DNA of 64,000 nt from an uncultured Rhodospirillaceae bacterium (GTDB lineage Bacteria; Pseudomonadota; Alphaproteobacteria; JAEULC01), in the NCBI GenBank assembly GCA_964557415.1, contig CAZLBB010000002.1:25645-89644 (forward strand), read 5' to 3'. A program made the position numbers and the translations under genes. The notes beneath the pieces are model-generated. The model saw nothing but the letters and a program-made list of their open reading frames with translations, searched no databases and was not told the origin of the DNA. This document shows positions 20,432 through 44,116 of this stretch, one piece after another; within the stretch, counting starts at the first letter, position 1, and each line of letters opens with the position of its first letter.

Positions 20432-20462
20432 CAACCGGGATAATATATTCAAGCAGGCTCCC

Positions 20463-21514: not shown

Positions 21515-21533
21515 CGGGCGAGACTCTCGCCCG
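21515..21533. other. Intergenic palindrome before proX (possible mRNA-stabilising hairpin)
   Basis: CGGGCGAGA-C-TCTCGCCCG. Confidence 0.45.
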
Positions 21534-21554
21534 CGCGATCGAGGGGGAGTATCG

Positions 21555-22565
21555 ATGACGCAGCATTCCAAGCGGTCGGCGTTCCTGGCGGGACTGATCG
21601 GAGTCGCAATGCTGGCATGCGCGCCAGCGGCGGAAGCTGCCGGTCCAGGCGAGGGAAAGACGATCCAGCCGATCTCGACCGGCAGGGCGGATCATTATTT
21701 CCAGCACTTCGTCGTGCAGATCGGGCTCGAACGCCTCGGTTACAAGGTGAAGCCACACCTGGAAGCGCAGTTCCCCGCGATGCATGTCGCAATTGGTCAG
21801 GGCGATGCTGACTACACCGCGGTTCATTGGGAAAAGCTGCACATCAAGTTCTACGAGAACGCTGGCGGCGAGAAGGCAATGCAGCGCGTCGGCGTCCTGA
21901 TCCCGGGTGTGTTGCAGGGGTACCTGATCGACAAGGTCACCGCGGACAAGCACAAGATCAGCAATCTCGGCCAGCTCAAGGATCCGGCTGTTGCGAAGCT
22001 TTTCGACTCAGCCGGCGACGGCAAGGCCCATCTGACGGGATGCAACCCCGGCTGGGGTTGCGAGCGCGTCATCGAGCATCAACTCGACGCCTACGGGCTG
22101 CGAGCGACGATAAAGCACGAGCAGGGTGAATACTTCGCGCTGATCGCCGACACGATCACGCGATACAAGGCCGGCAAGCCGATTTTCTACTACACTTGGA
22201 CGCCGCTGTGGGTCAGCTCGGTCTTGAAACCTGGGATCGATACGGTCTGGCTGGACGTTCCGTTCACCTCGCTGCCGGCGGAACAGGCCGGTGCGGAAAC
22301 CAAGCTGCCCGACGGCAGGAACCCGGGCTTCGTTCCTGATGCGATACGCGTGATGGCAAACAACAAGTTCCTGGCGGCTAATCCGGCCGCGAAGAAGTTT
22401 TTCGAGGTGGCGGCCCTGCCGATACAGGATGTCAACGCCGCGATCCTCCGCCAACAACAGGGCGAGAGCAAGGTCGAGCAGATCCGCGTGCATGCCGAGG
22501 AATGGGTTCGCGCAAACGAAGACACCTTCAAGAAGTGGGTCGCGGAGGCGACGACGGCGAAGTAG
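21555..22565 (+). CDS. proX: Glycine betaine/proline betaine-binding periplasmic protein
   Basis: Signal peptide; GCNPGWGC motif; three Trp positions of the ProX cation-pi box appear kept (HWEK, PGWG, YTWTP). Confidence 0.88.
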   Translation: MTQHSKRSAFLAGLIGVAMLACAPAAEAAGPGEGKTIQPISTGRADHYFQHFVVQIGLERLGYKVKPHLEAQFPAMHVAIGQGDADYTAVHWEKLHIKFYENAGGEKAMQRVGVLIPGVLQGYLIDKVTADKHKISNLGQLKDPAVAKLFDSAGDGKAHLTGCNPGWGCERVIEHQLDAYGLRATIKHEQGEYFALIADTITRYKAGKPIFYYTWTPLWVSSVLKPGIDTVWLDVPFTSLPAEQAGAETKLPDGRNPGFVPDAIRVMANNKFLAANPAAKKFFEVAALPIQDVNAAILRQQQGESKVEQIRVHAEEWVRANEDTFKKWVAEATTAK

Positions 22566-22792
22566 TGGGGACCGAGTTCATCATCTTTCGTGAGCGAGCC
22601 TCCTCCGGGTTTGTGCGTCTATTTGCTTCCCGTCCTTCCTCTCGTGAGGAGAGGGATAGCAAAGAAAGCGCCCGGATCTCAGGCCAAACCATCCATAGTG
22701 TTTCAGATTGACACGTTCTGCTTGTCGCATGGGAGCAAATCGCGGTATCCGGAGGAGTAATCGTCCCGATGAATACGGAGTGCCGTCGCCTC

Positions 22793-22923
22793 ACTCACGC
22801 CGCAAGCTGCTTCAGCTCCCCCAGCAGCGTCGCCAGGCCCTTGAGGCGCGTCGGCGCCTCTTCCCAGTCGCGCTGGAAGACCACGCGCTGGTCGGGGCGG
22901 ATCTTGGTCGTCGTGGCGTTGCG
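22793..22923 (-). repeat. 131-bp repeat forming the current mfd 3' end (att-like right junction)
   Basis: Identical to 16553-16683. Confidence 0.95.
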
Positions 22924-28773: not shown

Positions 28774-28845
28774 CGGTTTTCCCCGCTCGCCTCGCGGGCC
28801 CGGACCGGCTATCAAGTCGTGCATCGGCAATGCACAAGGACCCTC

Positions 28846-29424
28846 ATGGACCTCGCGCAGATCTTCGAGCTGATCCGGGAGCACGGCGACGTCGCCTATG
28901 CGTTCGTGTTCGCCCATGCGCTTTCGAACAGCCTGCTGGCGCTCCTGTTCGCCGGCTACGCCGCGCATGTGGGCGCTTTCGACCTCGCGACCGCGATCCC
29001 GGTGTGCTGGGCCGGCGGCTTCGCAGGCGACACCGTGCGGTTCTGGATCGCGCGGCGCTGGGGGCACAGGCTCGCCCGGCATTTCCCGCGCGTTCGGAAC
29101 GCCGTGAACGCGATCGTCAAGCTGATCGACCGGCACCACGCCTGGATGATCCTGGTGCACCGCTATCCGCACGGCATCCGCGGCATCGCAGGATTCGCCT
29201 TCGGCGTGTCGGCCGTGCCTTGGCCGCGATTCCTGGCGCTTAATGTCGTCTCGGCTGGCATCTGGTCCGGTGCGGTGGTCATGGCCGGCTACGGCTTCGG
29301 CCACGTGTCGGAGAAGGCGCTGGGCGATGCCGCTTCGGGCGCCAGCTTCGTCATGCTGGTGGCGTTCCTGGCCCTCGCCTGGCTGCTGTCGAAACGGCTC
29401 GAGCGCGCGATCGCGCAAGGCTAG
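28846..29424 (+). CDS. DedA family membrane protein
   Basis: GGFAGDTVRFWIARRWG; GFAFGVSAVPWPRFLALNVVSAGIW. Confidence 0.8.
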   Translation: MDLAQIFELIREHGDVAYAFVFAHALSNSLLALLFAGYAAHVGAFDLATAIPVCWAGGFAGDTVRFWIARRWGHRLARHFPRVRNAVNAIVKLIDRHHAWMILVHRYPHGIRGIAGFAFGVSAVPWPRFLALNVVSAGIWSGAVVMAGYGFGHVSEKALGDAASGASFVMLVAFLALAWLLSKRLERAIAQG

Positions 29425-29444: not shown

Positions 29445-32081
29445 CTAGCGTCCGGCGCCGCCTTCGCCGACCAGCACGAACGGCGCCCAGAACATCGGGT
29501 GGGTCATCTGCCGCGGCGTCTTCGGATCGTCGAGCAGCGCCAGCATGGAGCGGCGCAGCGCCTCGGCGCGGCCGATGCCCGGCTCGCGGTCCAGCGCCGC
29601 CACCGCCCCGGTCGTCAGCTTCACCGCCGCGTCGCTCGCCACGTACCAGTTCGACACCAGCAACGAGCGCGCGCCCGCGTAGAAGAACGCCTTGGCCAGA
29701 CCCGACAGGCCCTCCGCCCCCGGCGTCGCGTCGGGCGCGGCGGTGTTGCAGGCGCTCAGGATCACCCAGTCGGCGTCGAGCTTGAGCTGCGCCACTTCCG
29801 AGGCGGTCAGCAGCCCGTCGTCCTGGGGCGTCCCGGTCTCCGGCGGCGTCAGCACCAGCGAGGGCTCGGCGAAGTCGACGATCTCGCCCGCCATCAGGCC
29901 ATGCGTGGCGAAGGCCAGCACGCGGAAGCGCGACAGGTCGGTCGACTTCACCCTGGTCTCGGTCGCGTCCTTGCCCGTCCAGACATGGCCGGGCGAAGCC
30001 CGCATGTAGCGCGCGAGCTCCGCCAGCTCCTTGCCCGATTCCGGCAGCGGCTCGAGCTGCTGCAGCGCGCCGGAGTCGACGACGAAGCCGCGCATCACGA
30101 TAGCAGGGCCGCCCCGGCTCGGGCCGGGCGTGGATTCGCCGCGCCCGGCGAGCGCGGGGTCGCCGAAGCCCGCGAACGGTTCGCGCTTGGCCGACGCGGC
30201 GGCGGTCGCCCGCAGCGCCTGCAGCGACGACACCGAGGGCAGCACCGAGATGGCATACTTGCGCGACAGCCAGTCGGCGCCGCGGTAATCCGGGTCCGCC
30301 GCCTTGCCCTTCGGTGCGCTTGACGTGAGCAGGCCGAAGGGCAGGCTCTGCAGCGGCCCGTCCGGCACGACCAGCAGATGGCGCACGCCGGCAAGAGCAG
30401 CTTCGCCCGGCGCGATCAGGTCGCGATAGAGCAGGTGCGCCTGGTCGAGCGGCACGGATTGGAAGTCGCGGTTTTCGGCCGGATTGAGCGTCGCGCGCAG
30501 CGCCTTCACCGCCTGCTCCAGCGACGCGCGCGTCGTCTTGAGATGCAGCCAGAGGGTGCGCTCGCGACGCACGATCCATACGAACGCGTCGTCGTCGCGC
30601 ACCAGGTAGAGCAGCAGCGCCTCGTCGGGACCGAGGAGTTGCTTGGTCTGGCTGAGCTTGAGCGGCCGCGCCGCGGCGAGTTCGGCGTAGCCGGGAAAGT
30701 CCCTGGCGAGCGTCTTGTCGAGGGAGGCGAGGCGCCGGCCGAGCGCGACGACCTCTTCGCGCGCGGCGGACTCCTCTGCGGCGTTGCGCTCCTGCGGCGG
30801 CTTCGAGAGGAGCTCGAGCAGCGTCCGGTCGAGGAACTGCCGCCGCGCGAGCGCGTCCTCGCGCTCGCGGACCAGCTGGGCGAGCGGCCCGGTGCCCGAG
30901 GCGAAGCGCGCGGACATGCGCGCGAGCGCGCCGGCAACGCCGCCGGTCTGCGCCCATTGCGCCATCTCATAGGCTTCCGACATCAGCTCGTCCTTCTGGG
31001 CCGGAGCCGCGCGCAGCGATGCGAGGTGCGCCAGCCCCGCATGGGCCGCAAAGAGGACGCGCGCCGAACGGCGCTCGGTCTCGGCGCCCTCGTCGTAGCG
31101 CTGGTCGTCGTTGTCGCGCCGGGCGCGCGCGATCTCGGTGGCGCGGCGGATCGCCACGAGCGCTTCCTCGGGCCGGTTCAGCTGCGCCAGCGCACGCGCG
31201 TGACCGCCGTAAGCCCGGGCGGTCTCGGGATGCTGGGGCCCGAGCGACTCCTCGCGGATCACCGCCACCCGGCGGAACAGCGCCTCGGCAGCGACATGGT
31301 CGCCCTGGGCCAGCTTCACCTGCCCTAGCGCGAACACGGCCAATGCGGTTCGCGCATGCCGCGGCCCCAGCTTGCCTTCCTGGATCTTGACCGCGCGTTC
31401 GGCGGACGCGGCCGCCTCGTCCAGCCGGCCCAGCCCGCGCAGGGCCATGGAAAGGCCGATCAGGTTCACGCCGACATAGGTGTGATCGCGCCCGAGCTTC
31501 TCCTCGCGGATGGCCAGCGCGCGCCGCAAAACCGACTCGGCCTCGTCGAAGCGCTTCAGCTGCCGCAGCACCCGCGAATAGTGGCCGAGGGTGCTCGCGA
31601 GGTCGTCGCTGCCCGGCTGATGCTGCTCGCGCAATTCCACGGCGCGGCGCATCAGGGGCTCGGCTTCCAGCGCCCGCCCCTGCAGCCACAGATTGTTACC
31701 GAGCACCGTCAGCGCCCCGCCGACCGCGCGGGGATCGGCGCCTTCCCGTTCCGCAAGCATCAGCGAGCGGCGCAGGATGGGCTCGGCCTCGGCGTAACGG
31801 CCCTGCTCGGCGATGCTGTAGCCGAGACGGTTCAGGATGGCCGGCAGCGGCGGGCCGCGCGTGACCCGGCCCTGCTCGCGGTCCTCGAGCAGCCGGCGGA
31901 ACAGCTTCTCGGCCTCGACGAAGTTGCCCTTCTCGTAGACCGCGAGCGCCTGCTCGAATGCCTGGCGCTGGCCGCCGGCCTGTCCCTGTCCGCGGCCGAT
32001 GCCTTCCCGGTTCTGCGCCAGCGCGGGCGGAGCGCACAGCGCCACGGCGAGCGCGATGCCCGCCAAGAGCATGCGAAGCAT
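29445..32081 (-). CDS. TPR-repeat plus CHAT (caspase-like) domain protein with predicted signal peptide
   Basis: About 879 aa from MLRMLLAGIAL (AGGA RBS); kinesin-light-chain-like TPR repeats; CHAT His (FATHG) and Cys (LSACNT). Confidence 0.88.
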   Translation of the reverse strand: MLRMLLAGIALAVALCAPPALAQNREGIGRGQGQAGGQRQAFEQALAVYEKGNFVEAEKLFRRLLEDREQGRVTRGPPLPAILNRLGYSIAEQGRYAEAEPILRRSLMLAEREGADPRAVGGALTVLGNNLWLQGRALEAEPLMRRAVELREQHQPGSDDLASTLGHYSRVLRQLKRFDEAESVLRRALAIREEKLGRDHTYVGVNLIGLSMALRGLGRLDEAAASAERAVKIQEGKLGPRHARTALAVFALGQVKLAQGDHVAAEALFRRVAVIREESLGPQHPETARAYGGHARALAQLNRPEEALVAIRRATEIARARRDNDDQRYDEGAETERRSARVLFAAHAGLAHLASLRAAPAQKDELMSEAYEMAQWAQTGGVAGALARMSARFASGTGPLAQLVREREDALARRQFLDRTLLELLSKPPQERNAAEESAAREEVVALGRRLASLDKTLARDFPGYAELAAARPLKLSQTKQLLGPDEALLLYLVRDDDAFVWIVRRERTLWLHLKTTRASLEQAVKALRATLNPAENRDFQSVPLDQAHLLYRDLIAPGEAALAGVRHLLVVPDGPLQSLPFGLLTSSAPKGKAADPDYRGADWLSRKYAISVLPSVSSLQALRATAAASAKREPFAGFGDPALAGRGESTPGPSRGGPAIVMRGFVVDSGALQQLEPLPESGKELAELARYMRASPGHVWTGKDATETRVKSTDLSRFRVLAFATHGLMAGEIVDFAEPSLVLTPPETGTPQDDGLLTASEVAQLKLDADWVILSACNTAAPDATPGAEGLSGLAKAFFYAGARSLLVSNWYVASDAAVKLTTGAVAALDREPGIGRAEALRRSMLALLDDPKTPRQMTHPMFWAPFVLVGEGGAGR

Positions 32082-32159
32082 GTCCCGTTTCCTAGAGATG
32101 CGAGGCCCCGCGTTCCTCGATTTCGGTTGCCGGCTCTTCGGCGGTCCTTCGACAATACC

Positions 32160-32202
32160 AAAATAGCAGCGATCCGCCCGCAGCGCTGTGACGCGCGACA
32201 CA
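32160..32202 (-). promoter_or_regulatory. Putative class II CRP-type promoter of the TPR-CHAT gene
   Basis: TGTGA-CGCGCG-ACACA at 32187-32202 (9/10 to TGTGA-N6-TCACA); minus-strand TATTTT at 32165-32160 fits -12..-7 for a site centred at -41.5. Confidence 0.6.
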
Positions 32203-32212
32203 CGCGGGCGCA

Positions 32213-32938
32213 TCAGTCCTCGATCCGCTCCGCCAGGTGGCGCGCGCCGGCCTGCCCCGCGGCGGCCGTGTCGGGCGGCGTGACGATGCCGCCGGAGACG
32301 ACCAGCTTGATGCCGTCCTCCACCGACATCGACAGCGGCACGATGTCCTGCCGCGGCACGAACACCAGGTAGCCCGAGGTCGGATTCGGCGTCGTCGGCA
32401 CGAAGACGTTCACCACCTCGTCCTCGGTCAGGCGCTGGATCTCGCCCTTGGTCACCCCGGTGATGAAGCCGATGGCCCAGCATCCGCGCCGCGGGAACTC
32501 GACCAGGACGACCTCGCGGAAGCTGGTCGCGTTCTGCCCGACGACCGTCTCGATCACCTGCTTGCTGGCCGAATAGATGCCGCGCACGATCGGCATGCGC
32601 GCGACGATGCGCTCGCCCAGCCGGATCATCGCCCGGCCCAGGAAGCCCGCGGTCAGCATGCCGATCATCGTCAGCCCGATCAGCAGCGCGATCAGCCCGA
32701 GGCCGGGGATGCTGAACGGCAGGTAGGTCTCGGGATTGTAGATCGCCGGGATGAGCGGCTTGATCTTGTCGTCGACGAAGACGAGGAACAGCCAGGCGAG
32801 GTAGGAGGTGATGCCGATCGGCGCCGTGACCAGCACGCCGGCCAGGAAATAGGCGCGCAGCCGGCCCAAGGGGCCGATCTTGCCGGGCGGCGCCTCCTCC
32901 GGCGCGGGCGGCACGGTGTTGGACGGCAGTTCCGTCAT
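32213..32938 (-). CDS. DUF502 family membrane protein
   Basis: YFLAGVLVTAPIGIT, PIVRGIY, VLVEFPRRG, VFVPTTPNPTSG, VVSGG. Confidence 0.9.
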   Translation of the reverse strand: MTELPSNTVPPAPEEAPPGKIGPLGRLRAYFLAGVLVTAPIGITSYLAWLFLVFVDDKIKPLIPAIYNPETYLPFSIPGLGLIALLIGLTMIGMLTAGFLGRAMIRLGERIVARMPIVRGIYSASKQVIETVVGQNATSFREVVLVEFPRRGCWAIGFITGVTKGEIQRLTEDEVVNVFVPTTPNPTSGYLVFVPRQDIVPLSMSVEDGIKLVVSGGIVTPPDTAAAGQAGARHLAERIED

Positions 32939-32992
32939 GGCGCAGCAACTATCACCAAGCGCGGCCCTGTCGCAATGCGGCCGTTTGCGCCG

Positions 32993-33865
32993 TCATTGCT
33001 GGAAGAACGCCAGCAGCGCATCGGCGGTCTCGCCCGGCGCTTCCTCGGGCAGGAAATGCCCCGAGTCGACCGCCCGGCCGCGCACGTCATCGGCCCGCCG
33101 GCGCCATTCCGCCAGCACGTCGTAGCGCCGGCCGACGAAGCCCTTCGCGCCCCAGAGTGCCAGCAGCGGCATGGCGAGCTTGCGCCCGAGATCGGCCGCG
33201 TCGTGCGCCAGGTCGATGGTCGCCGCGGCGCGATAGTCCTCGCAGCTGCCGTGGATCGCGGCGGGATCGGAAAAGCAGCGGATGTACTCGGCGCGCGCCT
33301 CGGGCGTGACGGCGGCATCGTCCCGGCCCCAATGGCCGAGCTTGGTGTTGATCCACCAGGCCGGGTCGGCGCCGATCAGCTTCTCCGGCAGGGGCGCCTT
33401 CTGGATCAGGAAGAACCAATGGTAGTAGGCCGTGGCGAACTCCTTGTCGGTGCCCGCATACATCGCATGCGTCGGGCTGATGTCGAGAACGGCAAGCTTC
33501 GCGACCCGCTCGCCGTGATCGAGCGCCAGCCGATGCGCCACCCGCCCGCCGCGGTCGTGACCGGCGAGGCCGAAGCGCCGGAAGCCAAGCGCCTCCATGG
33601 CCTCGATCTGGTCCTTGGCCATGGCGCGCTTGGAATATCCGGCGTGGTCCGGCCCCCCGGGCGGCTTGAAGCTGTCGCCATAGCCGCGCAGATCGGCGCA
33701 GACGACCGTGAAGGTCCGGGCCAGGACCGGCGCCACCTTGTGCCACATGACATGCGTCTGCGGATAGCCGTGCAGCAGCAGAAGCGGCGGTCCGGAGCCA
33801 GCGACGACCAGGTTGATCTCGCCTTCGGCGACCGGGACGCGCCGATGCCGAAATCCCTCGAACAT
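32993..33865 (-). CDS. Haloacetate (probable fluoroacetate) dehalogenase, alpha/beta hydrolase
   Basis: HGYPQT, GHDRGGR nucleophile elbow, LDI, YYHWFF, EDYRA, GHFLPEE. Confidence 0.82.
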   Translation of the reverse strand: MFEGFRHRRVPVAEGEINLVVAGSGPPLLLLHGYPQTHVMWHKVAPVLARTFTVVCADLRGYGDSFKPPGGPDHAGYSKRAMAKDQIEAMEALGFRRFGLAGHDRGGRVAHRLALDHGERVAKLAVLDISPTHAMYAGTDKEFATAYYHWFFLIQKAPLPEKLIGADPAWWINTKLGHWGRDDAAVTPEARAEYIRCFSDPAAIHGSCEDYRAAATIDLAHDAADLGRKLAMPLLALWGAKGFVGRRYDVLAEWRRRADDVRGRAVDSGHFLPEEAPGETADALLAFFQQ

Positions 33866-33978
33866 CCGTCCTCCAAGACCCTTCGCGCTCGCGACCTTAA
33901 CACCCTGGAATCCGGCTCGCCAATCGCCCGGCTGGCGTTATAAAGTCCCGCGAAAGCAGGGGGCCGGAGGCTAGGTCG

Positions 33979-34680
33979 ATGTCGGACGCGGCGGAACGCA
34001 GCCTGAACGGGATTCCGCTGTTCGCGGACATGAAGCCGGAGCAGCGCGCGGCGCTCGAGCAGCAGGCCGTGTTCCGACGCTACATCGCCGGCGAGCAGAT
34101 CATCGACCGTCAATCCGACAGTCGCGACATGTTCTGCGTCGTGCGCGGCACCGTGCGCGTCGTGATCTACTCGGCTTCCGGACGCGAGGTCAGCTTCGAC
34201 GACATCGACGCCGGCGGCTACTTCGGCGAGCTGGCCTGCCTCGACAGCCGGCCGCGCTCGGCTTCGGTCGTGGCGCTCACCAACACCGTCGTCGCCGCCA
34301 TATCGCCGCCGGTGCTGGAGCGGGCGCTGCTCGAGCACCCGAAGATGGCGCTGATCCTGATGCGCCGCCTCGCCAAGGTGATCCGCCAGTCAACCGACCG
34401 CATCCTCGACCTCAGCACGCTTGGCGCCAACAACCGCGTCTATGCCGAGCTGCTGCGCCTGTCCAAGCCGAACGCCAAGGACATCGGCAGGACCGCGGTG
34501 ATCCGGCCGGTTCCCATTCACGGCGATATCGCCGCGCGCGTGAGCACCACGCGCGAGACGGTCGCCCGCGTGCTGAGCGACCTGTCGAAGAAGCAGCTCG
34601 TGATCAAGGAAGGCACCAGCCTGGTGATCAAGGACATCGACCGGCTGCGCGACATGGTCGAGCAGTTCCGTGGCGACTGA
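33979..34680 (+). CDS. Crp/Fnr family transcriptional regulator (cNMP-binding)
   Basis: FGELACLDSRPRSAS phosphate-binding cassette; HTH recognition helix TTRETVARVL. Confidence 0.9.
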   Translation: MSDAAERSLNGIPLFADMKPEQRAALEQQAVFRRYIAGEQIIDRQSDSRDMFCVVRGTVRVVIYSASGREVSFDDIDAGGYFGELACLDSRPRSASVVALTNTVVAAISPPVLERALLEHPKMALILMRRLAKVIRQSTDRILDLSTLGANNRVYAELLRLSKPNAKDIGRTAVIRPVPIHGDIAARVSTTRETVARVLSDLSKKQLVIKEGTSLVIKDIDRLRDMVEQFRGD

Positions 34681-34703
34681 CCGGCTTGCCGTGGGCCGCG
34701 GGC

Positions 34704-34746
34704 TGTGACGGCCGTCACTGCCAGCCGGGGGGGCCCATGCCATCCT
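34704..34746 (+). promoter_or_regulatory. Putative class II CRP-type promoter
   Basis: TGTGA-CGGCCG-TCACT at 34704-34719 (9/10 consensus; core 34705-34718 is a perfect palindrome); CATCCT at 34741-34746 fits -12..-7; predicted +1 A at 34753. Confidence 0.6.
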
Positions 34747-34752
34747 TGGTCC

Positions 34753-34932
34753 ATCGATGGGGTTTCCTGTCGATGTGAGAACCGGTGGGGCGGCCCGGCC
34801 TATCCTCAGCCAAGGCGTAAGTCGGTCCATCCCATTGGCTCTCCGGACAATCACCCGCGATTGTCCGACCTTTCGAAGCAGCCTCCTAGACGCACTTGGG
34901 AGCCAAGGCAACTTGGCTCCCAATTTTCTTTT
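34753..34932 (+). ncRNA. Candidate structured RNA (sRNA or attenuator/riboswitch leader)
   Basis: 9-bp hairpin 34844-34867, CCTCCT stretch, strong terminal hairpin with U-tract, alternative AGCCAA/TTGGCT pairings; 5' end inferred from promoter geometry; no family recognised. Confidence 0.5.
34896..34932 (+). terminator. Intrinsic terminator
   Basis: TTGGGAGCCAAG-GCAA-CTTGGCTCCCAA perfect 12-bp stem, GNRA loop, then TTTTCTTTT. Confidence 0.85.
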
Positions 34933-34958
34933 GTAACAATGAGTTCAAAGGTGATCCT

Positions 34959-36287
34959 GTGACAACGGTTGCAGTCCGCCCGAACATCGACCTGGCCAGT
35001 GCCGCCGCCGAGGCGGCAGCGCTCTACACCGAAGCCAATCCCAAGAGCCTCCAGCGCCATCACGCCGCGGCCGAAAGCATGCCCGGGGGCAACACCCGGA
35101 CCGTGCTGTTCTTCGCCCCCTATCCGCTCTGCTTCGTGCGCGGCGCGGGAGCCAGGCTCTGGGATGTAGACGGGCACGAATATGTCGATTTCCTGGGCGA
35201 GTACACGGCGGGCCTCTACGGCCACTCGCACCCGGTCATCACCGACGCCATCCGCCGGGCGCTCGACGACGGCATCGCGCTGGGCGGGCATACCCCGCAC
35301 GAGGCCGTGCTGGCCGCCGCCGTCAAGAGCCGCTTCGCGTCGGTCGATCTGATGCGCTTCTGCAATTCGGGCACGGAAGCCAATCTGCTGGCGATATCCG
35401 CCGCGCGGCTGTTCACCAGGCGCGACAAGATCCTGGCCTTTGCCGGCGGCTACCACGGCAGCGTACTGAGCTTCCCGTTCACCGCCCCGCCGGGCGGCAC
35501 GATCAACGTGCCCTTCCCCGTCGTCCTTGCCCCCTACAATGACCTCGCCGCGACCGAGGCGCTCATCGCGGCACACGCCAAGGACCTCGCGGCGATCATC
35601 ATCGAGCCGATGCTCGGGGGCGGCGGCTGCATCCAGGCCGCGCCCGAGTTCCTGGCGGCGCTGCGCCAAGCCTGCGACCGGCACGGGATCGTGCTGATCT
35701 TCGACGAGGTCATGACCTCGCGCCTGTCGCCCGGGGGCTTGCAGCAGCTGCGCGGCATCCGGCCCGATCTCACCAGCTTCGGCAAGTACCTGGGCGGCGG
35801 CTTGCCGACCGGCGCGTTCGGTGGCAGGGCCGACATCATGGAGCGCTTCGACCCGCGCCGGCCGGACGCCGTGGCCCATGCCGGCACGTTCAACAACAAC
35901 GTGCTGACCATGGCCGCCGGTGCCGCCGGCCTCACCCGCGTCTACACGCCCGAGGCGGCCGTGGCGCTCAACCGGTCGGGCGACGCCCTGCGCGAGCGGC
36001 TGAACGAGCTCATCCGGCGCCGCGGCGCCAGGGCCGTGGTCTCGGGCTGCGGCTCGATGATGAACTTCCATCCCGGGATCGACCGGCTGCCGCGGGCCCC
36101 GGCCGACATCGCGAAGATTCCCGGGCCGCTGCGCGACGTCTTCCATTTCGACATGCTGGCGCGCGGCATCCACGTCGCGCGCCGCGGCATGATCAACCTG
36201 TCGCTGCCGATGACCGAGCGGGACTTCGACCGCCTGGCCGGCGCGTTCGACGAGTTCCTGTCGGCGCGGGCTGGGCTCTTGGCCTAG
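34959..36287 (+). CDS. Class III PLP aminotransferase, beta-amino-acid (beta-phenylalanine-type) transaminase-like
   Basis: MPGGNTRTVLFFAPYP, NSGTEAN, FDEVMTSR, SFGKYLGGG (PLP Lys), HAGTFNNN; GTG start. Confidence 0.85.
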   Translation: MTTVAVRPNIDLASAAAEAAALYTEANPKSLQRHHAAAESMPGGNTRTVLFFAPYPLCFVRGAGARLWDVDGHEYVDFLGEYTAGLYGHSHPVITDAIRRALDDGIALGGHTPHEAVLAAAVKSRFASVDLMRFCNSGTEANLLAISAARLFTRRDKILAFAGGYHGSVLSFPFTAPPGGTINVPFPVVLAPYNDLAATEALIAAHAKDLAAIIIEPMLGGGGCIQAAPEFLAALRQACDRHGIVLIFDEVMTSRLSPGGLQQLRGIRPDLTSFGKYLGGGLPTGAFGGRADIMERFDPRRPDAVAHAGTFNNNVLTMAAGAAGLTRVYTPEAAVALNRSGDALRERLNELIRRRGARAVVSGCGSMMNFHPGIDRLPRAPADIAKIPGPLRDVFHFDMLARGIHVARRGMINLSLPMTERDFDRLAGAFDEFLSARAGLLA

Positions 36288-36344: not shown

Positions 36345-38876
36345 CTAGCTCCCGTTGGCGCGCAGCTTGTCGGCGCTCGACAGCGCCGCGTCGATCGCGG
36401 CGAGGAACCCCTTCACGTCGATCGGCTTGGTCAGGTAGCGGAAGAAGCCGGCTGCCTGGCCGCGCTTGATATCTAGCGGCATGGCCGCGGCGGTCAGCGC
36501 GATCACCGGGATGTGGCAGGTCTCCGGCATCGCCTTGAGACGCGCCAGGACCTCGTAGCCGTTCATCTCCGGCAGGTTGAGGTCGAGCACGATCACGTCC
36601 GGGCGGTGCGCCACGGCGAGGTCCAGCCCAAGGCTCGGCCTGCTCGCCGACAGCATGACCACCTCGGGAATCGTCGATATCAGGTGCTCCATGAGGCGCA
36701 GGTTGGTCGGGTTGTCCTCGAAGTACAGCAGCGAGTAGCCGCCGGCCAACGCGCGCGCCGCCGCCGTATGTCTCGGCTTGGCCGCAGGCCGCCCGCCGCT
36801 CGATGCGGCGGTCTCCATGGGGATGTCGACCCAGAAGCTGCTGCCCTCTCCGAACTTCGTCTCGTAGCCGAGTTCGCCGTCCATCGCCTCGGCCAGGCGC
36901 TTGCATATCGACAGCCCGATGCCAGCGCCTTCGATTGCGGTGTATTCGGCACCCAGCCGCTTGAACGGCTGGAACAGCTCGGCCTCGCGCTCCTTGGCGA
37001 TGCCAATGCCCGTGTCGCGCACGAGCAGGCGAACGCGTCCGTTCGGCATCTGGGCGGCCGCCACCACGACCGATCCCCCGGGGCGGTTGTACTTGACCGC
37101 ATTGGAGACGAGATTGATCAGGATCTGGCGCAGCCGCAGGTCGTCTGCCCGCACGTCCGGAACCGCATCTGCGTTCCGCACGTCGAGCGCGATGCCCGAC
37201 TTCTGCGCCAGCGCCGACATCGTATTGCGCAGGCTGGCGAACACGTCCGCCACCGCGACGCGCTCGATCGACAGTTTCATCTCCCCGCTCTCGATCCGCG
37301 CGAGATCGAGCACCTCGTTGACGAGAGCCAGCAGGTGGTGTCCGGAGTCGTTGATGTGACGGCTATACTCCAATTGCGACCCGGTCAGGTTCACGGGACG
37401 GTTCAACTCCAGCATTTGCGCGAAGCCGATGATCGCGTTCAAGGGCGTGCGCAGCTCGTGGCTCATGCGCGACAGGAATTCGGACTTCGCCCGGTTCGCC
37501 TTGTCCGCCGCCTCGGTGGCGGCCGCCAGCTGGGCTTCGCGGCGCTTCCGCTCTGTGATGTCGGTATGCGTTATGGCAAGGTACCCGTTCGGCATCGGCG
37601 ACCATTGCACGGCGATCACGGTTCCGTCGCGACGCCGGCGCTCGTAGCGCCTGTGCTCGCCCGATGCCGCGTATTCCAGCCGGTCCGTCACTGCCCGTGC
37701 CGGATCTTCTCCGTCATACTCGCCGCTATCGCGGATGGCACGCAGCAAGTCGTCCAGCGGCGCTCCCTTCGCGATCATTCCGCTCGGGAGGCTGAAGAAC
37801 GACGCCAGCTTGGCGTTCCAGGCCACCAGCCGGCGATCGCGGTCGAACACGGCGACTGCCTGGTCGATGCTGGCGAACACCGATTCGAGCAGGGACGACT
37901 TCTCCGCCGCAGCTTTGGCGAGTTGCTCGCGCCGCCTGACCAACACGAGCAGCAGCCAGGCGCCGAGCCCCGTCGCGGCGACCACCAGCGCCGCCACGGG
38001 CACCGTCACCGAGAGCTGCCGGCGAAAGCCGGCCAGGGTGTCGCCTCGCGAAATCGTCGCGGTGACGACCAACGGATGCCCGGGCACGGCGCCATAGCTG
38101 ATGATCCGGTCGGACCCGTCGAACGCGCTGTTGCCGTGGTAGGTTCCGGACGCGGCGCGTGGGAGATGCTCGCGAAACAGTCTGCCGTCGGCGAACGTCC
38201 GGCCAGCAAGCGATGGAATGTCCGGATTGCGCGCCAGGATCGTGCCGTCCCGGCGCAGCAACGTCACCCTTCCGTCGCCGCCGATATCCAACGAGTGATA
38301 ATAATTCGTGAAGTACTCCAGCGCGACGATCGCGTTGACGATGCCTGCGAAACGGCCTTGCGCATCGTCATAGCGGCGTGAAACGGTGATAATCCAGCTT
38401 CCATCCACGACCGAGCGGATCGGCGATGCGATGTGCATACCGTCGACGGAACGGTTCGCGTGGACGACGAACTGCTCCTGGTCGGCGATGTTGAGCGCGG
38501 CCGGATGGCGAAACTCCGACGAATACAGCCGATTTCCACGTGCATCGGTCCAGCCCAGGCGACGTACGACCGGAGAACCGCCGACGATGCCGCGCAGTAC
38601 GTCGTGAGCGGACGCGTTGCTCTTGAGCGGCTCCGATTCCGTTTCGCGGCGCAGTTCCACCGTCGCCGCAAGCGCGCGCGACACAACCTCGAAGGTGCGC
38701 GCCGTGCTCTCGACAAGCAGGATGCGCACGTTCTGCGCCTCGCGATCGGCACGCGCGAGCGCGCGCTGGTAGCTGTCGTAGGCACCGTAGGTGAGCCAGG
38801 CGAGCACGGCGCCGACAATGAGCGACGCGACTGCGCCAATTGCTCGCGCAGGACTCGGCAGGCCGGTACTCGGCAT
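36345..38876 (-). CDS. Hybrid sensor histidine kinase (periplasmic Cache-like, one PAS-like domain, HisKA, HATPase, receiver)
   Basis: Two TM segments, [42 protein letters not shown] receiver. Confidence 0.92.
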   Translation of the reverse strand: MPSTGLPSPARAIGAVASLIVGAVLAWLTYGAYDSYQRALARADREAQNVRILLVESTARTFEVVSRALAATVELRRETESEPLKSNASAHDVLRGIVGGSPVVRRLGWTDARGNRLYSSEFRHPAALNIADQEQFVVHANRSVDGMHIASPIRSVVDGSWIITVSRRYDDAQGRFAGIVNAIVALEYFTNYYHSLDIGGDGRVTLLRRDGTILARNPDIPSLAGRTFADGRLFREHLPRAASGTYHGNSAFDGSDRIISYGAVPGHPLVVTATISRGDTLAGFRRQLSVTVPVAALVVAATGLGAWLLLVLVRRREQLAKAAAEKSSLLESVFASIDQAVAVFDRDRRLVAWNAKLASFFSLPSGMIAKGAPLDDLLRAIRDSGEYDGEDPARAVTDRLEYAASGEHRRYERRRRDGTVIAVQWSPMPNGYLAITHTDITERKRREAQLAAATEAADKANRAKSEFLSRMSHELRTPLNAIIGFAQMLELNRPVNLTGSQLEYSRHINDSGHHLLALVNEVLDLARIESGEMKLSIERVAVADVFASLRNTMSALAQKSGIALDVRNADAVPDVRADDLRLRQILINLVSNAVKYNRPGGSVVVAAAQMPNGRVRLLVRDTGIGIAKEREAELFQPFKRLGAEYTAIEGAGIGLSICKRLAEAMDGELGYETKFGEGSSFWVDIPMETAASSGGRPAAKPRHTAAARALAGGYSLLYFEDNPTNLRLMEHLISTIPEVVMLSASRPSLGLDLAVAHRPDVIVLDLNLPEMNGYEVLARLKAMPETCHIPVIALTAAAMPLDIKRGQAAGFFRYLTKPIDVKGFLAAIDAALSSADKLRANGS

Positions 38877-39067
38877 CACGCGACCCCTCCGGCATCGCAT
38901 CGAGTGCGTTCGAGGGGCGCCTCGTTACGCGAGTTTTCGCGCGAATGCACGGCAAAACCCACGCCAAGGCAGCTGACCGAAATCAAGCTGGAATTCCCGC
39001 GTGCATGCAAGCGCTTACACAGCGCGGAGCCGCCGCTTCGCCCTGCTGCATGCGACGCAGCCCGCCG

Positions 39068-42000
39068 CTAGGCCGTCTCGGGAAGGTTCTTATCGCCGCT
39101 AGCGAGCGCTTCATCGACCGCGGCGAGAAACGCCTTCACGTCGAGCGGCTTGGTCACGTAGCGGAAAAAGCCGGCGGCAAGACCGCGGGCGATGTCGACT
39201 GGCATGGCGGCCGCAGTCAGCGCCAGGACCGGAATGTCGCGCGTCTCCGGTTTCGACTTGAGCCGGGCGAGCATGTCCAGTCCGCTCATCTCCGGCATGT
39301 TGAGGTCGAGCACAATGACGCTCGGTCGGTGCGCGACCGCCAGGTCCAGGCCCAGCCGCGGCGTCGCCGCGGACAGCATGACTACATCGGGCAGCGTCGA
39401 GATCAGGTGCTCCATGAGACGCAGGTTGACCGGGTTGTCTTCGACATAGAGCAACGAATAGCCGCCCGCCGTCGCCCGCGACTCGGGCAATGCCCCCGCA
39501 GACGCGCCTTGCGCCGTCCGAGACGCGCTCTCGGCCGTCTCGATCGGCAGTTCGATCCAGAACGTGCTGCCTTGGTCGGGAACGCTCGAGAAGCCGATCG
39601 TGCCGCCCATCGCCTCGATCAGGCGCTTGGCGATCGCCAGGCCGATGCCGGTCCCTTCGATCGCGGTGTATTCGGCGCCCGCGCGATTGAAGGGGACGAA
39701 GATGTCCTTCTGCTGCTCGGGCGGGATGCCGATCCCGGTATCGAGCACGATGAAGCGCACGCGTCCGCCAGGCGTGCCCATGGCCGACAGGAAGACCGAG
39801 CCGCCCGGACGATTGTACTTGATGGCGTTCGAAACCAGGTTGATCAGGATCTGGCGCAATCGCAGATCGTCCGCGCGGATGTCCGGGACATGCGCGGCAT
39901 CGGCGATCTCGAGCGCGACGCCCGCCTTGGCGGCAAGCGGCGCCATGGTGTCGCGCACCCCTTCCAGGGCGTCGCCGACCGAGACCCGCTCGATCGAGAG
40001 CTTGAGGTTGCCCGATTCCACGCGCGAGAGATCGAGGATGTCGTTGACGAGGCCGAGCAGATGGCGCCCGCCACGCTCGATGTGGGCGCAGTACTCCTTC
40101 TGCCGCTCCGTCAGGGTCTGCGAGCGGTCCAGCTCGAGCATCTGCGCGAAGCCGATCACGGCGTTGAGCGGCGTGCGCAGTTCGTGGCTCATGCGCGACA
40201 GGAAGTCGGATTTGGCGCGGTTCGCCTGCTCCGCCGCCTCGCGCGCGGCGGCCAGTTCGGCCTCACGCTGCTTCAACTGGGTGATATCGGTGCGGATCGC
40301 GACCACGCCGCCTTCCTGCGTCGGCCGCTCGCGCAGCGAGATCCAGCGGCCGTTGGCGAGCCGGTGCAGGTGCGGCCGCGTCGGCGGCGCCCGGTGCAGC
40401 GCGACCCGCTGCCGGATGTATTCCTCCTCGCGCCCCTTGGCGGACTCGACCAGCCCCGCCCGCACGCGCTGTTCCATGACCTCGCGGAACGTGACGCCAG
40501 GAACGAGGCGCCGCGCCATGTCCGGATCGCCGTCGCTCGCCGCTTCATTGCACAGGACCAGGCGGTCTTGCTCGTCCCACAGGATGAACCCGTCGGACAT
40601 GCTCTCGATCGCGTCGCGCAGGTGCGCATGCGCCTTGGCCGCGCGCGCCTCGCTGGCGCGCAGGTCGGCCTCGGCGGCGCGCAGCCGGGCCTCGGTCTCC
40701 TTGAGCCTGGTAATGTCCATGGCAACGGTGATCACGTACTCGACCTGGCCGCGCGCATCGCGCAGCGGCTGCTTGGCCGTGATCCAGTTGCGCCGGACGC
40801 CGTCGACGCCAGCATACTGCTCCTCGAACAGCCCCGCCGCTTCGCCGGACTCGATGACGCGCCGGTCCAGTTCGCGCGTGTAGCTGCCGTAGCGTGCGCC
40901 CAAGAGTTCGGCCGCTGTCTTGCCGACGGCTTCCGGCGGCGTGGTTCCGTAAAGCTCGGCCTGGTACGAGTTCATCAGCACGTAGCGGGAGTCCAGGTCC
41001 TTGGCGTTGATCATCGCCGGTATGGCATCGACTACCGCGCGCAGCATCGCCGCGGCCTCTATCTCCTTCGTCATGTCGCGGCCGGTGCCGCGGTAGCCGC
41101 GGAAGCGGCCCGTTTCGTCGAACACCGGCACGCCGCTGACCGACAGGTGCCGCAGCCGGCCGTCGGGTCCGATCTGCTGGTAGCGGAAGTCGTGCAGCGG
41201 TTTGCGCGCGGCCAGGGTCTCGTCGTGAATCCGCCATTCGTCTTCGGTGACGCCCAGCTTTGTGGTCTCGCGCCGTGTCTTGCCGTAATTCCCTTCCGGC
41301 GTGATCGACGCATGCTGCCCTTTCGCCGACGAGATGGCGGTGAAGCGCAGGTTCTCGTCCTGCTCCCAGTACCAGTCCGCCGAGGACAGGGCGAAATCGC
41401 GGAAGCGCTTCTCGCCTTCGCGCAGCGCCGCTTCGGCCCGCTTCTGTTCGGTGACGTCCGTATGGATGATCGTCAGGAACCCGTTAGGCATCGGCGTCCA
41501 TTGCACCTCGACGATCGCGCCGTTGCGCCTGCGCCGCTCGTAGCGGCGCGGCTGGCGCGCGCGCGCGGCAGCGATCAGCTCGTCGACGGCCGCATCGGCA
41601 GCCCCGCCGTCCCCGAAGTCCCCGCGCTCGGCGAAGTATCGCAGGCGATCCTCGAGCCGGGCCCCGCGATGCAGATGCACGCCACCGGCATAGTCCATGG
41701 CGGCGAGATGCTCGTTCCAGGCGACCAGCCGGAGCTCCGTGTCGTAGACCGAGACGCCCTGCCGCATGGTCTTGAAGACCGACTCGAGCAGCGCGGTCTT
41801 TTCCGCCAGCAGCATGGCTTGCGCTTCGATTTCGCGCTCGCGCTGCTTGCGCTCGGTGATGTCCAGATGCGTGACCGCCATGTAGCCGTTGGGCATCGGC
41901 ACCCATTCGACTTCCATGTCGATGCCGTTCGGGCAACGGCGCTCGTACCGCCGATGTCGCCCCTCGCGCACGATCGCCACGCGATCGCGCACGGCCTGCT

Positions 42001-43924
42001 CGGGATCCTCGCCCGCGTATTCGCCGTTGGCGGCGAGGGTGCGCAATCGCTCCTCCAGGCCCATGCCATAGCGCAACGGTGCGATCGCGGTATTGAAGAA
42101 TTTGCCGATATGCTCGTTCCAGGCCACAACCTTGAGGTCGGGATCGAAAACGACGACGCCCTGCTTGATGCTGGTGAAGACCGACTCGAGCAGGGCCGTC
42201 TTCTCGGCCAGCATGGCGCGCTGCGCCTCGATTTCCGCTTCGCGTTGCCGGCGCTCGGTGACGTCGCGGATGGCGCTGAACACGAGCAATCCCTCGGGCG
42301 CCTGCATCGGGCTCAGGCTGATCTCGATCGGGAACTCCGTGCCGTCCTTCTTCAGGCCAAAGAGCTCCGTTGCGTTGCCCATCTTGCGCACTTGGGGCGT
42401 TCCGGAGTACTGCGCCCGATGCTCCGGGTGACGGGCGCGGAACCGCTCGGGCATCAGGCTCTCGACCGGCTGGCCCAGCAGCTCGTCGCGCCGGTAGCCG
42501 AAAAGCCGCTCGGTCTGCGCGTTGACGAGTACGATCCGGCCCTGCTCGTTGGCGATGACCATGGCGTCGGGCGCCAGCTCCAGTACGCTCCGGAACTTCG
42601 CTTCGGCACGCTTGCGCTCGGTGACGTCGCGGGCGATCGTCGACGCGCCGATGATCGCCCCGCCGGCATCGCGCACCGGCGACACGGTAATCGAGACATC
42701 GACGCGCGTGCCGTCCCTGCGCAGCCGGACCGTCTCGCAGTTCGCCAGAACCTCTCCACGCCTGACGAGATCGGTCAACCCGGCTTCCTCGTCGGCGCGA
42801 TCCGGCGGCACGATTGCGTCGACACGCCGGCCGAGCACCTCCTCGGCGCGGTACCCGAACATGCGCTCGGCTGCGGCATTCCAGCTCGTGATCGTGCCAT
42901 CGAACCGCTTGGTGACGATCGCGTCGTCGGTCGACTCGACGATGGCTGCCAGCGAGGCCTTGGCCCGGAACGCCTCCTCTTTTCGCCGCAGCAGCATCAG
43001 AAGGACGGCAGCCGCGGCCATCACGGCGGCGACGGTCAACGCCGTCCGGAACAGGGAACCCGCGAGGCGCTGACGGAAGCCGGCCAGCGCGTCGCGCACG
43101 CTGATGCTCGTGGCGACCACCAGCGGCAGCCCCGGCACCGCGCCGTAGCTGACGAGGCGGTCCAGGCCGTCGAGTGGGCTGACCGCGCGATACGCACCCG
43201 TGGGCGCGTCGGATAGACGCTCGCGAAGCCAGGTCGTATAGGCCGTCGATGCCTGCCCGTCCGCCGGCAGCTCCGGATCGCGTACCAGCACCGTACCGTC
43301 GCGCCGCATCAGGAGGATGCTGCGGTCGGCCCCCAGCTCGAGCGATTGATAGAAATTGGTGAAATACTCGTGCAGGACGATGCCGTTGACGACGCCGACG
43401 AACCGTCCACTGGCGTCGCTGGCGCGCCGCGAGACCAGGATGATCCGCGAATAGTCCAGCAGTGAGCGCACCGGTGCAGCGATGTAGAGGCCCGTATCGG
43501 GCGAGGCGGCGTGGACCCGGAAGTGATCCTGGTGGGCCGAGTTGAGCGGCGGCGGATCGCGAAAGCGCGAGGAGTAGATCCGCTCGCCCACCTCGTTGGT
43601 CCAGCTCAGGCCCTGCAGCACGGGCGATCCGCCGTGGATCGCCTTGAGCATGTCATGGACAGCCGATCTCGGTATCAGCCCGGCTTCTGCTTCCTTGCGC
43701 ATGTCGATTGCTGCATTGAGCGCGCGCGACACGGATTCGAAGCTGCGTGCGGCATGCTCGACCAGCATGTTCCGCGCATTGTCCGCGTCGCGCACGGCGC
43801 GAGCGATGGCGGCGCGGTAACCGGAATAGGCCTCGTACGCCGCCGCGCCGCAGATTGCGGCGATCAGCAGCGCGGTTCCGGTCAAAATCAGCGTTCTTGG
43901 ACTCTGCCCCGATGCGGCGCCCAT
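39068..43924 (-). CDS. Large multi-PAS hybrid sensor histidine kinase
   Basis: Same N- and C-terminal architecture as 36345-38876 with about seven PAS/PAC-like segments; [14 protein letters not shown]; start placed at MGAASGQ. Confidence 0.92.
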
Positions 43925-44012
43925 ACCTGTCACCTCGGATCTGGAGAGGTGCGCCGCCCCCAAGGCCGCACCGCGATCCCGAACCGCGATAGGTAGGGAT
44001 AGCCGGAATAGG

Positions 44013-44028
44013 GTTAATAAAAGCTGAA
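44013..44028 (-). promoter_or_regulatory. Possible CtrA box upstream of the large kinase
   Basis: Minus strand TTCA-GCTTTTA-TTAAC, one mismatch to TTAA-N7-TTAAC, in an AT-rich patch about 90 bp upstream of the start. Confidence 0.4.
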
Positions 44029-44116
44029 GGGCCGACTGCCTGCCGGTCGGCGATGTCAACGACCGACCGATGTCCAGCTCGGCGGCATGCGGCCTTGAGC
44101 TGGATCAACTTCGGCG

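Follow-up and report, generated by a model that had tools for sequence, protein, structure and literature searches.

A candidate Crp-controlled small RNA gene directly behind crp in an uncultured alphaproteobacterium

The DNA of interest is a 64,000-nucleotide stretch from an uncultured Rhodospirillaceae bacterium (assembly GCA_964557415.1, contig CAZLBB010000002.1, positions 25,645 to 89,644; hereafter the window, in whose own numbering its features are given). It encodes a Crp/Fnr-family regulator of the CRP type (Crp), and near-perfect copies of the palindrome TGTGA-N6-TCACA lie on both sides of the crp gene: Box 1 in front of a gene for a TPR-CHAT protein, and Box 2 between crp and an aminotransferase gene. 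An initial annotation saw in Crp, the boxes and their apparent targets a candidate for a new regulatory system. Which genes are controlled through the boxes, does the regulator respond to a cyclic nucleotide, and how much of the arrangement is new? The analysis reported here points to a unit in which Crp probably acts through Box 2 on a small RNA (sRNA) with an anti-Shine-Dalgarno stretch, the aminotransferase and CHAT genes having been added in this lineage.

Two Crp boxes and the RNA behind crp

Escherichia coli CRP reads TGTGA-N6-TCACA with residues R180, E181 and R185, and activates class II promoters from -41.5. Sites that match this palindrome with at most one mismatch (9/10) occur exactly twice in the window, both times between genes (coordinates in Table 1). 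Box 2 begins 24 bp past the crp stop codon (34680), and the end of Box 1 lies 1777 bp upstream of the crp ATG (33979). The boxes also share what follows them: TGC comes after a spacing of 18 nt and leads into a hexamer with A(-11) and T(-7) (TGC and hexamer at offsets 19–27). This arrangement implies purine starts at 32153 (-) and 34753 (+), and each box is centred 41.5 bp from the start on its side. Both the positions of the boxes—about 1.8 kb upstream and 24 bp downstream of crp—and the implied starts are as the initial annotation had them. The predicted CHAT transcript would carry a 5' untranslated region of 72 nt. No sigma-70 -35/-10 pair was found in 31900–35100. With a site near -41.5, a -35 element absent, and the -10 geometry kept at both boxes and at orthologous loci (the start being implied), the sequence supports reading the boxes as Crp-type sites in a class II-like arrangement.

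That there are two 9/10 boxes would, by itself, be weak evidence: 0.56 are expected in the window, and at least two were found in 14 of 100 shuffles. The evidence becomes strong because of three further properties: (i) intergenic placement, both boxes lying inside the ~17% of the window without a coding call, (ii) rank among all sites in the window, and (iii) the rare geometry that the two have in common. Ranks were obtained with a position weight matrix (PWM) of 41 non-redundant orthologous sites, from which the window and its two closest relatives were excluded. Across both strands of the 64 kb, Box 2 comes first (26.1 bits) and Box 1 second (15.4 bits), followed by a third site at 10.0 bits; all others score at most 7.6 bits and lie within genes. 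First-order Markov simulations lead us to expect 0.165 hits per window at 15 bits or above and 1.5 at 10 bits or above, and the TG/A/T promoter geometry is present at a fraction of 0.00083 of positions.

Relatives of the locus were collected by a genome-collection scan and a metagenome scan with the orthologue alignment, which together gave 87 usable Crp-orthologue loci (46–97% identity; at most ~10.7 kb each), referred to by L numbers where needed. Box 2 and its spacing to the -10 element are kept in 46 of the 87: a perfect GTGA-N6-TCAC core lies no more than 150 nt past the crp stop. As background, the rest of those loci contains 21 copies of this core in 400 kb (0.008 per 150 bp). Across orthologous sites the half-sites GTGA and TCAC are invariant, and the N6 spacer and flanks are variable. 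After the box, offset 23 is an A in 31 of the 46 loci and offset 27 a T in 34; most remaining loci have the hexamer moved by one base (TATGAT). Further boxes of equal geometry are found in L009, which carries two tandem box-plus-sRNA units, and in L056. Because of its conservation in orthologues, its invariant half-sites, the fixed offset of the -10 element and its top PWM rank, we take Box 2 to be real and almost certainly functional.

Two deviating placements were seen among the relatives. At L045:1510–1560, in a locus whose Crp is 85% identical to that of the window, only the left half-box is present (TGTGACGCCCG), divergent sequence follows and no sRNA is left; the operator has been broken here by rearrangement or in assembly. 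At four loci a box lies directly upstream of crp itself (L082:122–137, L099:1063–1078, L101:294–309 and L078:1367–1382), and in L082, L099 and L101 it ends 2 nt before a TACAAT/TAGAAT hexamer ahead of crp. Such placement suggests autorepression, as it does in group C loci (below), where an additional box lies 2 nt ahead of a TACAAT hexamer just in front of crp. In the window itself, the PWM scan detected no box preceding crp.

Downstream of Box 2, the initial annotation had placed a structured RNA, and its presence is well borne out. The 180-nt RNA folds with a minimum free energy of -83.8 kcal/mol (z = -5.7) into three stem-loops and a terminator hairpin, with a single-stranded, CU-rich seed ahead of the terminator (Table 1). 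When the 10 homologues of the window type (group A; ~165–185 nt, from loci with Crp 84–97% identical) were folded independently, the same four elements emerged. In their alignment 85% of cells are paired, compared with 32–59% when the partners are slid; with the structure taken from the window sequence, 11 pairs show changes on both sides, a number reached by 1 of 500 shuffles. The helices vary, and an invariant stretch of ~45 nt includes the single-stranded segment, a 24-nt part of the seed being invariant in 10 loci.

The RNA is predicted to be non-coding, with its own promoter and intrinsic terminator. The only long reading frame is not kept, because homologues differ in length by 16 nt, and group A RNAs contain no small open reading frame (ORF) preceded by a Shine-Dalgarno (SD) sequence. 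We describe it as a putative base-pairing sRNA whose CCUCCU seed is complementary to SD sequences. The spacer between the crp stop and the RNA start folds no better than shuffles (z = +0.32), and no terminator was found between the crp stop and the hairpin at 34896–34923, so that the sRNA could also arise as the 3' end of the crp mRNA.

Rfam searches at the gathering score found no family in the window or in L119 and L121, and returned one tRNA only from 20 related loci. Relaxed thresholds gave sub-threshold matches to BjrC68, suhB and SorY only. The window RNA was assigned to none of these: BjrC68 (RF02353) scores 24.2 bits against a gathering score of 39, in a match that is mostly terminator, and suhB/MmgR (RF00519) is not matched by the window at all, related crp-linked RNAs scoring 25–27 bits against 41.

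Box 1, the regulator and its signal

The gene that Box 1 faces encodes a protein with a signal-peptide-like N-terminal segment (MLRMLLAGIALAVALCAPPALAQ); together with the TPRs, this makes the TPR-CHAT protein look like a secreted or periplasmic protease. Its gene has recG, the VTT-domain protein gene and the DUF502 gene as neighbours. An anti-phage defence role was considered and rejected, as no PADLOC model matched the CHAT protein; the only PADLOC matches in the window are trivial ones of the Crp cNMP domain to Pycsar effectors.

For Box 1, comparison was limited to one locus, L001, other close loci having no CHAT gene beside DUF502 or ending too early. Box 1 and its TGC TA(T/A)TTT element are kept in this 96%-identical relative; this is uninformative because the whole intergenic region is ~89% identical. 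Could Box 1, then, be a chance or non-functional match, leaving the crp–sRNA pair as the only real regulatory unit? One hit of 15 bits or above appears in 14% of simulated windows, the box is kept only in L001, and a second relative with a CHAT gene (L002; 56% identity) has none. Yet Box 1 is intergenic, is the second-best PWM match of the window and repeats the TGC-plus-hexamer geometry of Box 2 on precisely the strand that faces the CHAT gene, a coincidence with a joint expectation of ~0.165 x 0.00083 per window. We regard this reading as unlikely. On its PWM rank, its intergenic position and its exact Box 2 geometry, Box 1 is probably real but recent, and the link to the CHAT gene probable. 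The initial assignment of the CHAT gene as the Box 1 target stands on PWM score (15.4 bits, rank 2) and geometry, with the box kept in L001 only and absent upstream of the CHAT gene of L002.

Crp, the presumed reader of both boxes, matches the Pfam families PF00027 (cNMP_binding; 61.9 bits), PF13545 (HTH_Crp_2; 43.2 bits) and PF00325 (23.5 bits). It is 26% identical to E. coli CRP (BLASTP, E = 1e-18; the E. coli sequence used was matched to PDB 1G6N over 210 residues). In the alignment, E. coli G71/E72, R82/S83 and T127/S128 correspond to G83/E84, R93/S94 and S138/T139, and R180/E181/R185 to R192/E193/R197, in RETVAR. The nucleotide-binding cassette (FGE...RSA) and RETVAR had been recognised initially and are upheld by this alignment; the cassette is invariant in 10 orthologues, and SRVSTTRETVARV is likewise invariant in orthologues. 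The nearest full-length solved structure is that of Sinorhizobium meliloti Clr (7PZA, E = 1.5e-19), followed by GlxR, Mycobacterium tuberculosis Crp and CAP. No NCBIfam equivalog model is matched, and the protein belongs to a distinct subfamily, not being an E. coli CRP equivalog.

Is the signal a cyclic nucleotide? In two sub-lineages (L005–L007 and L047–L049), a gene for a CHASE2/class III cyclase lies on the strand opposite to crp, at a distance of a few kb. The box is present in all six loci, and in L007 the cyclase gene (3961–6183, -) directly abuts the sRNA terminator. The cyclases that adjoin the pair, the phosphate-binding cassette and T127/S128 equivalents kept invariant in orthologues, and the activator position of the site, at -41.5 where a -35 element is missing, all speak against a different possibility, namely that the sites are real but that the regulator responds to another ligand or to none, or represses there. 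That possibility draws on a score far under the CRP equivalog threshold, on the absence of a cyclase from the window, and on the repressor-like box of group C, 2 nt upstream of TACAAT before crp, from which it seems that the family can probably repress too. We judge it unlikely, and cyclic-nucleotide control of Crp plausible. Which nucleotide binds is not told by the ST motif at the T127/S128 position. The initial annotation had also pointed to a cNMP-domain diguanylate cyclase nearby; the protein is indeed encoded in the window (44117–45610, -), but a link to the regulon is not supported, there being no PWM match near its upstream region.

The aminotransferase and the wider RNA family

Past the sRNA, the class III aminotransferase begins with a GTG 22–26 nt beyond the U-run, has its own SD sequence (AAGGTGA) and leaves no space for a promoter. 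Its best NCBIfam match is hemL-like, below cut-off. Because the GTG follows the U-run so closely, the gene is most likely expressed by terminator read-through from the Box 2 promoter.

The same closeness, together with the length and strong structure of the RNA and the recurrence of the arrangement in L001, L046, L003 and L039, would also suit a cis-acting leader of the aminotransferase gene—a riboswitch or attenuator, with Box 2 as its promoter and the terminator as its expression platform. These four loci and the window are, however, the only ones with an aminotransferase after the RNA. The same RNA, invariant seed included, is followed by genes for small secreted proteins in L041, L042 and L044, and in L004 by dubious ORFs and then a gene on the opposite strand; the related RNAs of L005–L007 precede a convergent gene, which the RNA of L007 abuts. 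Since the RNA occurs in relatives without the aminotransferase, it does not appear to be primarily a leader of that gene. Nor does the conserved part resemble a ligand-pocket-like core, being instead the single-stranded CCUCCU stretch; no riboswitch family was matched in Rfam, and it is to crp, not to the downstream gene, that the RNA is linked. A leader is therefore quite improbable. Where Box 2 had initially been assigned the structured RNA and the aminotransferase as joint target, the RNA half of the assignment is strongly supported by comparison (46/87 loci), and the aminotransferase would be reached in this lineage by read-through. The small secreted proteins that follow the sRNA in L042 (2982–3392) and L044 (3998–4390) are rich in Gly, Tyr and Pro (GYGYGYYHGPYRPYWRGYYHPYYYP).

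A weaker 8/10 site overlapping the aminotransferase start had been noted initially as a third Crp box. Its position was recovered and its regulatory role rejected: its 10.0 bits are at chance level (a window should hold 1.5 hits of 10 bits or above by chance), L001 has a degraded copy, and L003, where the aminotransferase start differs, has none.

It is highly improbable that both palindromes are RNA hairpins or terminator-like ends of the crp and DUF502 transcripts and not protein sites: they do lie just downstream of stop codons (crp 34680, DUF502 32213), and the Box 1 -10 region shares bases with a weak terminator-like match, but Box 2 lacks a U-run behind it, the spacer shows no excess folding over shuffles, the half-site letters GTGA/TCAC are invariant in orthologues where hairpins would need mere complementarity, and the weak hairpin near Box 1 is lost in L001.

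We return to the sRNA as a probable output of Crp. In the 48 loci with a box, a terminator was found within 320 nt in 35, a CU-rich stretch just ahead of the terminator in 32 and a small ORF in 13; several of the remaining loci are incomplete contigs. The RNAs fall into four groups. Beside group A, there are (i) group B (L005–L007), of ~125 nt and containing GAGCCUCCUCUCCAAGACGCA, (ii) group C (14 loci), of ~85 nt and containing UUCCCUCAAGAGA, and (iii) group D, with an SD sequence and a hydrophobic ORF of ~31 aa, e.g., MSTLKALGVAVTLTFLSLAMMPGGSVLFGNF. Groups A, B and D share an order of motifs: a 5' AUCG...CGAU hairpin, AACCGG(C/U)GGG, and GCCUCCU...ACGC. An nhmmer search of all loci with a sequence-only hidden Markov model built from group A RNAs found group A only and did not reach groups B to D. 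Because the model misses the other groups, we infer their common descent with group A from position and ordered motifs, not from a statistical score.

The ~31-aa peptide has the consensus M-TLKALGVAVTLTFLSLAMMPGGS-F-G-F; its ORF is preceded by an SD sequence and lies behind the Crp-box promoter. The peptides matched no family in Pfam or NCBIfam. Loci with the ORF are L047–L051, L008, L068, L077, L085 (3878–3973), L091, L104 and L115. In L047–L051, GGAGCCUCCUCUCCAAACGC and a terminator come after the ORF, which makes these transcripts (peptide ORF, CCUCC stretch and terminator) candidate dual-function RNAs.

In a Magnetospirillaceae metagenome-assembled genome (MAG), two tandem units lie 1.4 kb downstream of crp, past genes for a ZIP transporter and a ferritin-like protein (L009:7078–7335). 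Each has a Crp box, a -10 element at equal spacing, a short hairpin, a CU-rich stretch and a terminator. The first of these units and L099 give sub-threshold suhB/MmgR scores of 26.7 and 25.1 bits, respectively (gathering score 41).

Cultured relatives carry a comparable gene. Niveispirillum irakense (L119:5790–5900) and Indioceanicola profundi (L121:5760–5870), whose Crp proteins are 57–58% identical to that of the window, have an sRNA-like gene (ACCUCCUUAUGAGGCUCCCUUCAU and a terminator) directly after crp. By sequence, the pair of crp and an sRNA thus appears to recur in many uncultured and cultured Rhodospirillales-like Alphaproteobacteria.

Proposed circuit, known systems and locus surroundings

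How might the unit work? A CRP-type factor would bind GTGA-N6-TCAC at -41.5 and from there activate a promoter without a -35 element, just downstream of its own gene, the extended -10 element (TGn) assisting class II-like activation. The promoter would yield a highly structured RNA of ~180 nt that ends at a strong intrinsic terminator, and the exposed, invariant CCUCCU stretch would pair with SD sequences. Its most likely function is that of a trans-acting riboregulator that blocks ribosome binding on target mRNAs. Two additions would be particular to this lineage: the class III aminotransferase, reached by read-through from the Box 2 promoter, and a second promoter of the same geometry gained by the secreted TPR-CHAT protein. 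As a whole—cyclic-nucleotide signal, binding and activation by Crp, action of the RNA in trans, read-through—this is the best explanation that we can offer, and we hold it to be probable.

Several observations count against it. Firstly, a perfect core box downstream of crp is absent in 41 of the 87 orthologous loci, and the sRNA-like gene of N. irakense and I. profundi has a sigma-70-like promoter of the TTGACC...TATATA type and no Crp box. The RNA is thus not under Crp control everywhere; the linkage of crp and sRNA would be older and wider than the Crp box, since these two genera have the gene without it. Secondly, the -10 hexamers are weak (CATCCT), so that the start sites are only implied. 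Thirdly, the regulator may be other than supposed: the boxes could be bound by a Crp/Fnr paralogue encoded elsewhere in the genome, and the effector of Crp itself could differ, given a score of 77.3 bits with the NCBIfam CRP equivalog model (PRK11753) against a cut-off of 266. A tblastn search of the window with the cyclase of a related locus found no class III cyclase, the initial annotation likewise having seen no nucleotide cyclase there. Fourthly, L002, with a Crp 91% and a CHAT protein 56% identical to those of the window, has no box upstream of its CHAT gene and has an extra gene between DUF502 and CHAT. Fifthly, when the seed was paired with 46 initiation regions of the window using RNAduplex, the best energy (-37.4 kcal/mol) was not distinguishable from that of shuffled seeds (mean -33.3, standard deviation 2.6). 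Finally, the whole case is computational.

A broader proposal seems to us possible, though short of probable: that one Crp subfamily, across a broad Rhodospirillales-like clade, carries at the 3' end of its own gene a dedicated and fast-diversifying RNA output gene—anti-SD sRNAs of ~85 to 180 nt, some of them dual-function with a hydrophobic peptide of ~31 aa—so that cyclic-nucleotide signalling would be routed largely post-transcriptionally, the present lineage having also captured the TPR-CHAT protease and the aminotransferase.

A regulator gene beside its cognate sRNA gene is a familiar arrangement: OxyR/OxyS, GcvA/GcvB and SgrR/SgrS in enterobacteria, and VtlR(LsrB)/AbcR in Alphaproteobacteria. 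These regulators are of other families, mostly LysR, and their genes are mostly divergent from the sRNA. The present pair resembles them in forming one conserved two-gene unit—and the alphaproteobacterial cases also in their C/U-rich anti-SD seeds—but its sRNA is co-directional and directly behind the regulator stop. CRP-controlled sRNAs are known from enterobacteria as well, with CyaR activated and Spot 42 repressed; they too are small RNAs with a terminator, but are unrelated in sequence to the window RNA, whose gene, unlike theirs, is attached to crp. E. coli CRP and the window protein are alike in half-sites, recognition residues, an intact cNMP cassette and a -41.5 site on a promoter without a -35 element, and unlike in overall sequence (26% identity; equivalog score 77 against 266). 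Among alphaproteobacterial RNAs, suhB/MmgR (alpha-r8, RF00519) and BjrC68 (RF02353) are also short sRNAs with a hairpin, a CU-rich single strand and a terminator; the window RNA is much longer (~180 nt), has two extra hairpins and scores under their gathering thresholds.

Precedents in Alphaproteobacteria are CgrA of Rhodospirillum centenum and Clr, both 'cluster G' CRPs (PMC4681086, PMC10127613). The CgrA footprint is TGTGA-N6-TCACA, and its gene closes a gcyB-gcyC-cgrA cyclase operon (PMC4681086). Clr responds to both cyclic AMP and cyclic GMP and has a TT motif at the T127/S128 position, whereas CgrA is specific for cyclic GMP; Clr promoters have sites at -42 to -76, with the motif GTNNCNNNNGNNAC (PMC10127613). 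The window Crp would thus read the same DNA motif as CgrA, but its gene stands alone between DUF502/hydrolase and the sRNA, without a cyclase operon; Clr is the best full-length structure match and differs in DNA motif and recognition helix. Both are cNMP-responsive Crp proteins, and an sRNA partner has been reported for neither. A literature search found no description of a crp-linked sRNA in Alphaproteobacteria, its coverage being incomplete and thus no proof of absence. A Crp-family activator beside a cognate sRNA is known regulatory logic, and the initial claim of a new system was too strong; the probable novelty lies in the RNA family itself and in its attachment to crp in Alphaproteobacteria.

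Not a new kind of system, the pair is nevertheless of use. Crp and cyclic-nucleotide signalling is poorly understood in Alphaproteobacteria beyond Sinorhizobium (Clr) and R. centenum (CgrA), and few alphaproteobacterial sRNAs have a known transcriptional input. Here is a testable regulator–sRNA pair with a defined operator, a predicted start, an invariant seed and ~50 natural variants, and with orthologues in the cultured genera Niveispirillum, Indioceanicola, Aestuariispira and Arenibaculum. It adds an RNA family absent from Rfam and a conserved ~31-aa peptide without a family. Should the CHAT promoter prove true, it would show a Crp regulon that has taken in a secreted caspase-like protease.

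The window has a G+C content of 68%, and its nearest relatives in the genome-collection scan are MAGs of uncultured Alphaproteobacteria/Rhodospirillales. Genes within 28.8–38.9 kb were assigned from ORFs and Pfam (Table 1).

Table 1. Features of the crp locus and adjoining signalling genes (window coordinates)
Feature	Position	Strand	Basis and remarks
VTT-domain protein	28819-29424	+	ORF, Pfam
TPR-CHAT protein, 878 aa	29445-32081	-	Pfam CHAT (PF12770) 184 bits, residues 548-873; N-terminal TPR repeats
Extended -10 TGC TATTTT, predicted CHAT promoter	TGC 32168-32166, TATTTT 32165-32160	-	Implied start G 32153
Box 1	32187-32202	-	Forward letters TGTGACGCGCGACACA; minus-strand letters TGTGTCGCGCGTCACA; centre -41.5 of predicted CHAT promoter
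DUF502 membrane protein	32213-32938	-	Pfam DUF502
Alpha/beta hydrolase (dehalogenase/epoxide-hydrolase-like)	32993-33865	-	Pfam Abhydrolase_1; divergent from crp
Crp/Fnr-family regulator, CRP-type, 233 aa (crp)	33979-34680	+	Pfam cNMP_binding and HTH_Crp_2
Box 2	34704-34719	+	TGTGACGGCCGTCACT; centre -41.5 of predicted sRNA promoter
Extended -10 TGC CATCCT, predicted sRNA promoter	TGC 34738-34740, CATCCT 34741-34746	+	Implied start A 34753
Small RNA, ~180 nt	34753 to ~34932	+	Fold, terminator, homologues
Stem-loop SL1	34753-34774	+	
Stem-loop SL2 (long)	34777-34843	+	
Stem-loop SL3	34844-34867	+	
Predicted single-stranded seed	34868-34895	+	GACCUUUCGAAGCAGCCUCCUAGACGCAC; contains CCUCCU (anti-SD)
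Intrinsic terminator	34896-34923	+	12-bp G+C-rich hairpin, then U-run TTTTCTTTT
Third site, 8/10	34958-34973	+	TGTGACAACGGTTGCA; overlaps aminotransferase GTG start; PWM 10.0 bits, no promoter geometry
Class III aminotransferase (GSA-aminomutase-like)	34959-36287	+	Pfam Aminotran_3; GTG start
Large dCache/PAS hybrid histidine kinase	36345-38900	-	
Second large dCache/PAS hybrid histidine kinase	39068-44059	-	
cNMP-binding GGDEF protein	44117-45610	-	Pfam GGDEF and cNMP_binding
Single-domain receiver	47998-48462		

The gap between crp and the aminotransferase gene measures 278 nt. Farther out lie mfd, sdhE and recG on one side, and the second PAS kinase, the cNMP-GGDEF protein, an amidase and the receiver on the other. 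A backbone of sdhE, recG, DUF502(-), crp(+) and sRNA is present in Indioceanicola; compared with this backbone, the window has gained VTT and CHAT between recG and DUF502, the hydrolase between DUF502 and crp, and the aminotransferase after the RNA. DUF502 also adjoins crp in L121/L122, L041, L044, L054 and L064, and appears to be its ancestral divergent neighbour. Only close relatives (group A; Crp 84–97% identical) have the hydrolase beside crp. The CHAT, hydrolase and aminotransferase genes thus look like lineage-specific insertions around a conserved unit of crp and small RNA, and the links of the CHAT and aminotransferase genes to that unit like recent ones.

Signalling genes crowd the region that adjoins the crp locus (36345–48462), and many of the distant orthologous loci have one or two genes for single-domain receivers behind crp and its small transcript. 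No tRNA gene was found in the window. Positions 16500–22800 have a G+C content of 0.61–0.63, compared with 0.68–0.72, and encode a LysR regulator, an MttB-family methyltransferase and an OpuA-type betaine ABC transporter; this region resembles a quaternary-amine utilisation cluster and was possibly acquired.

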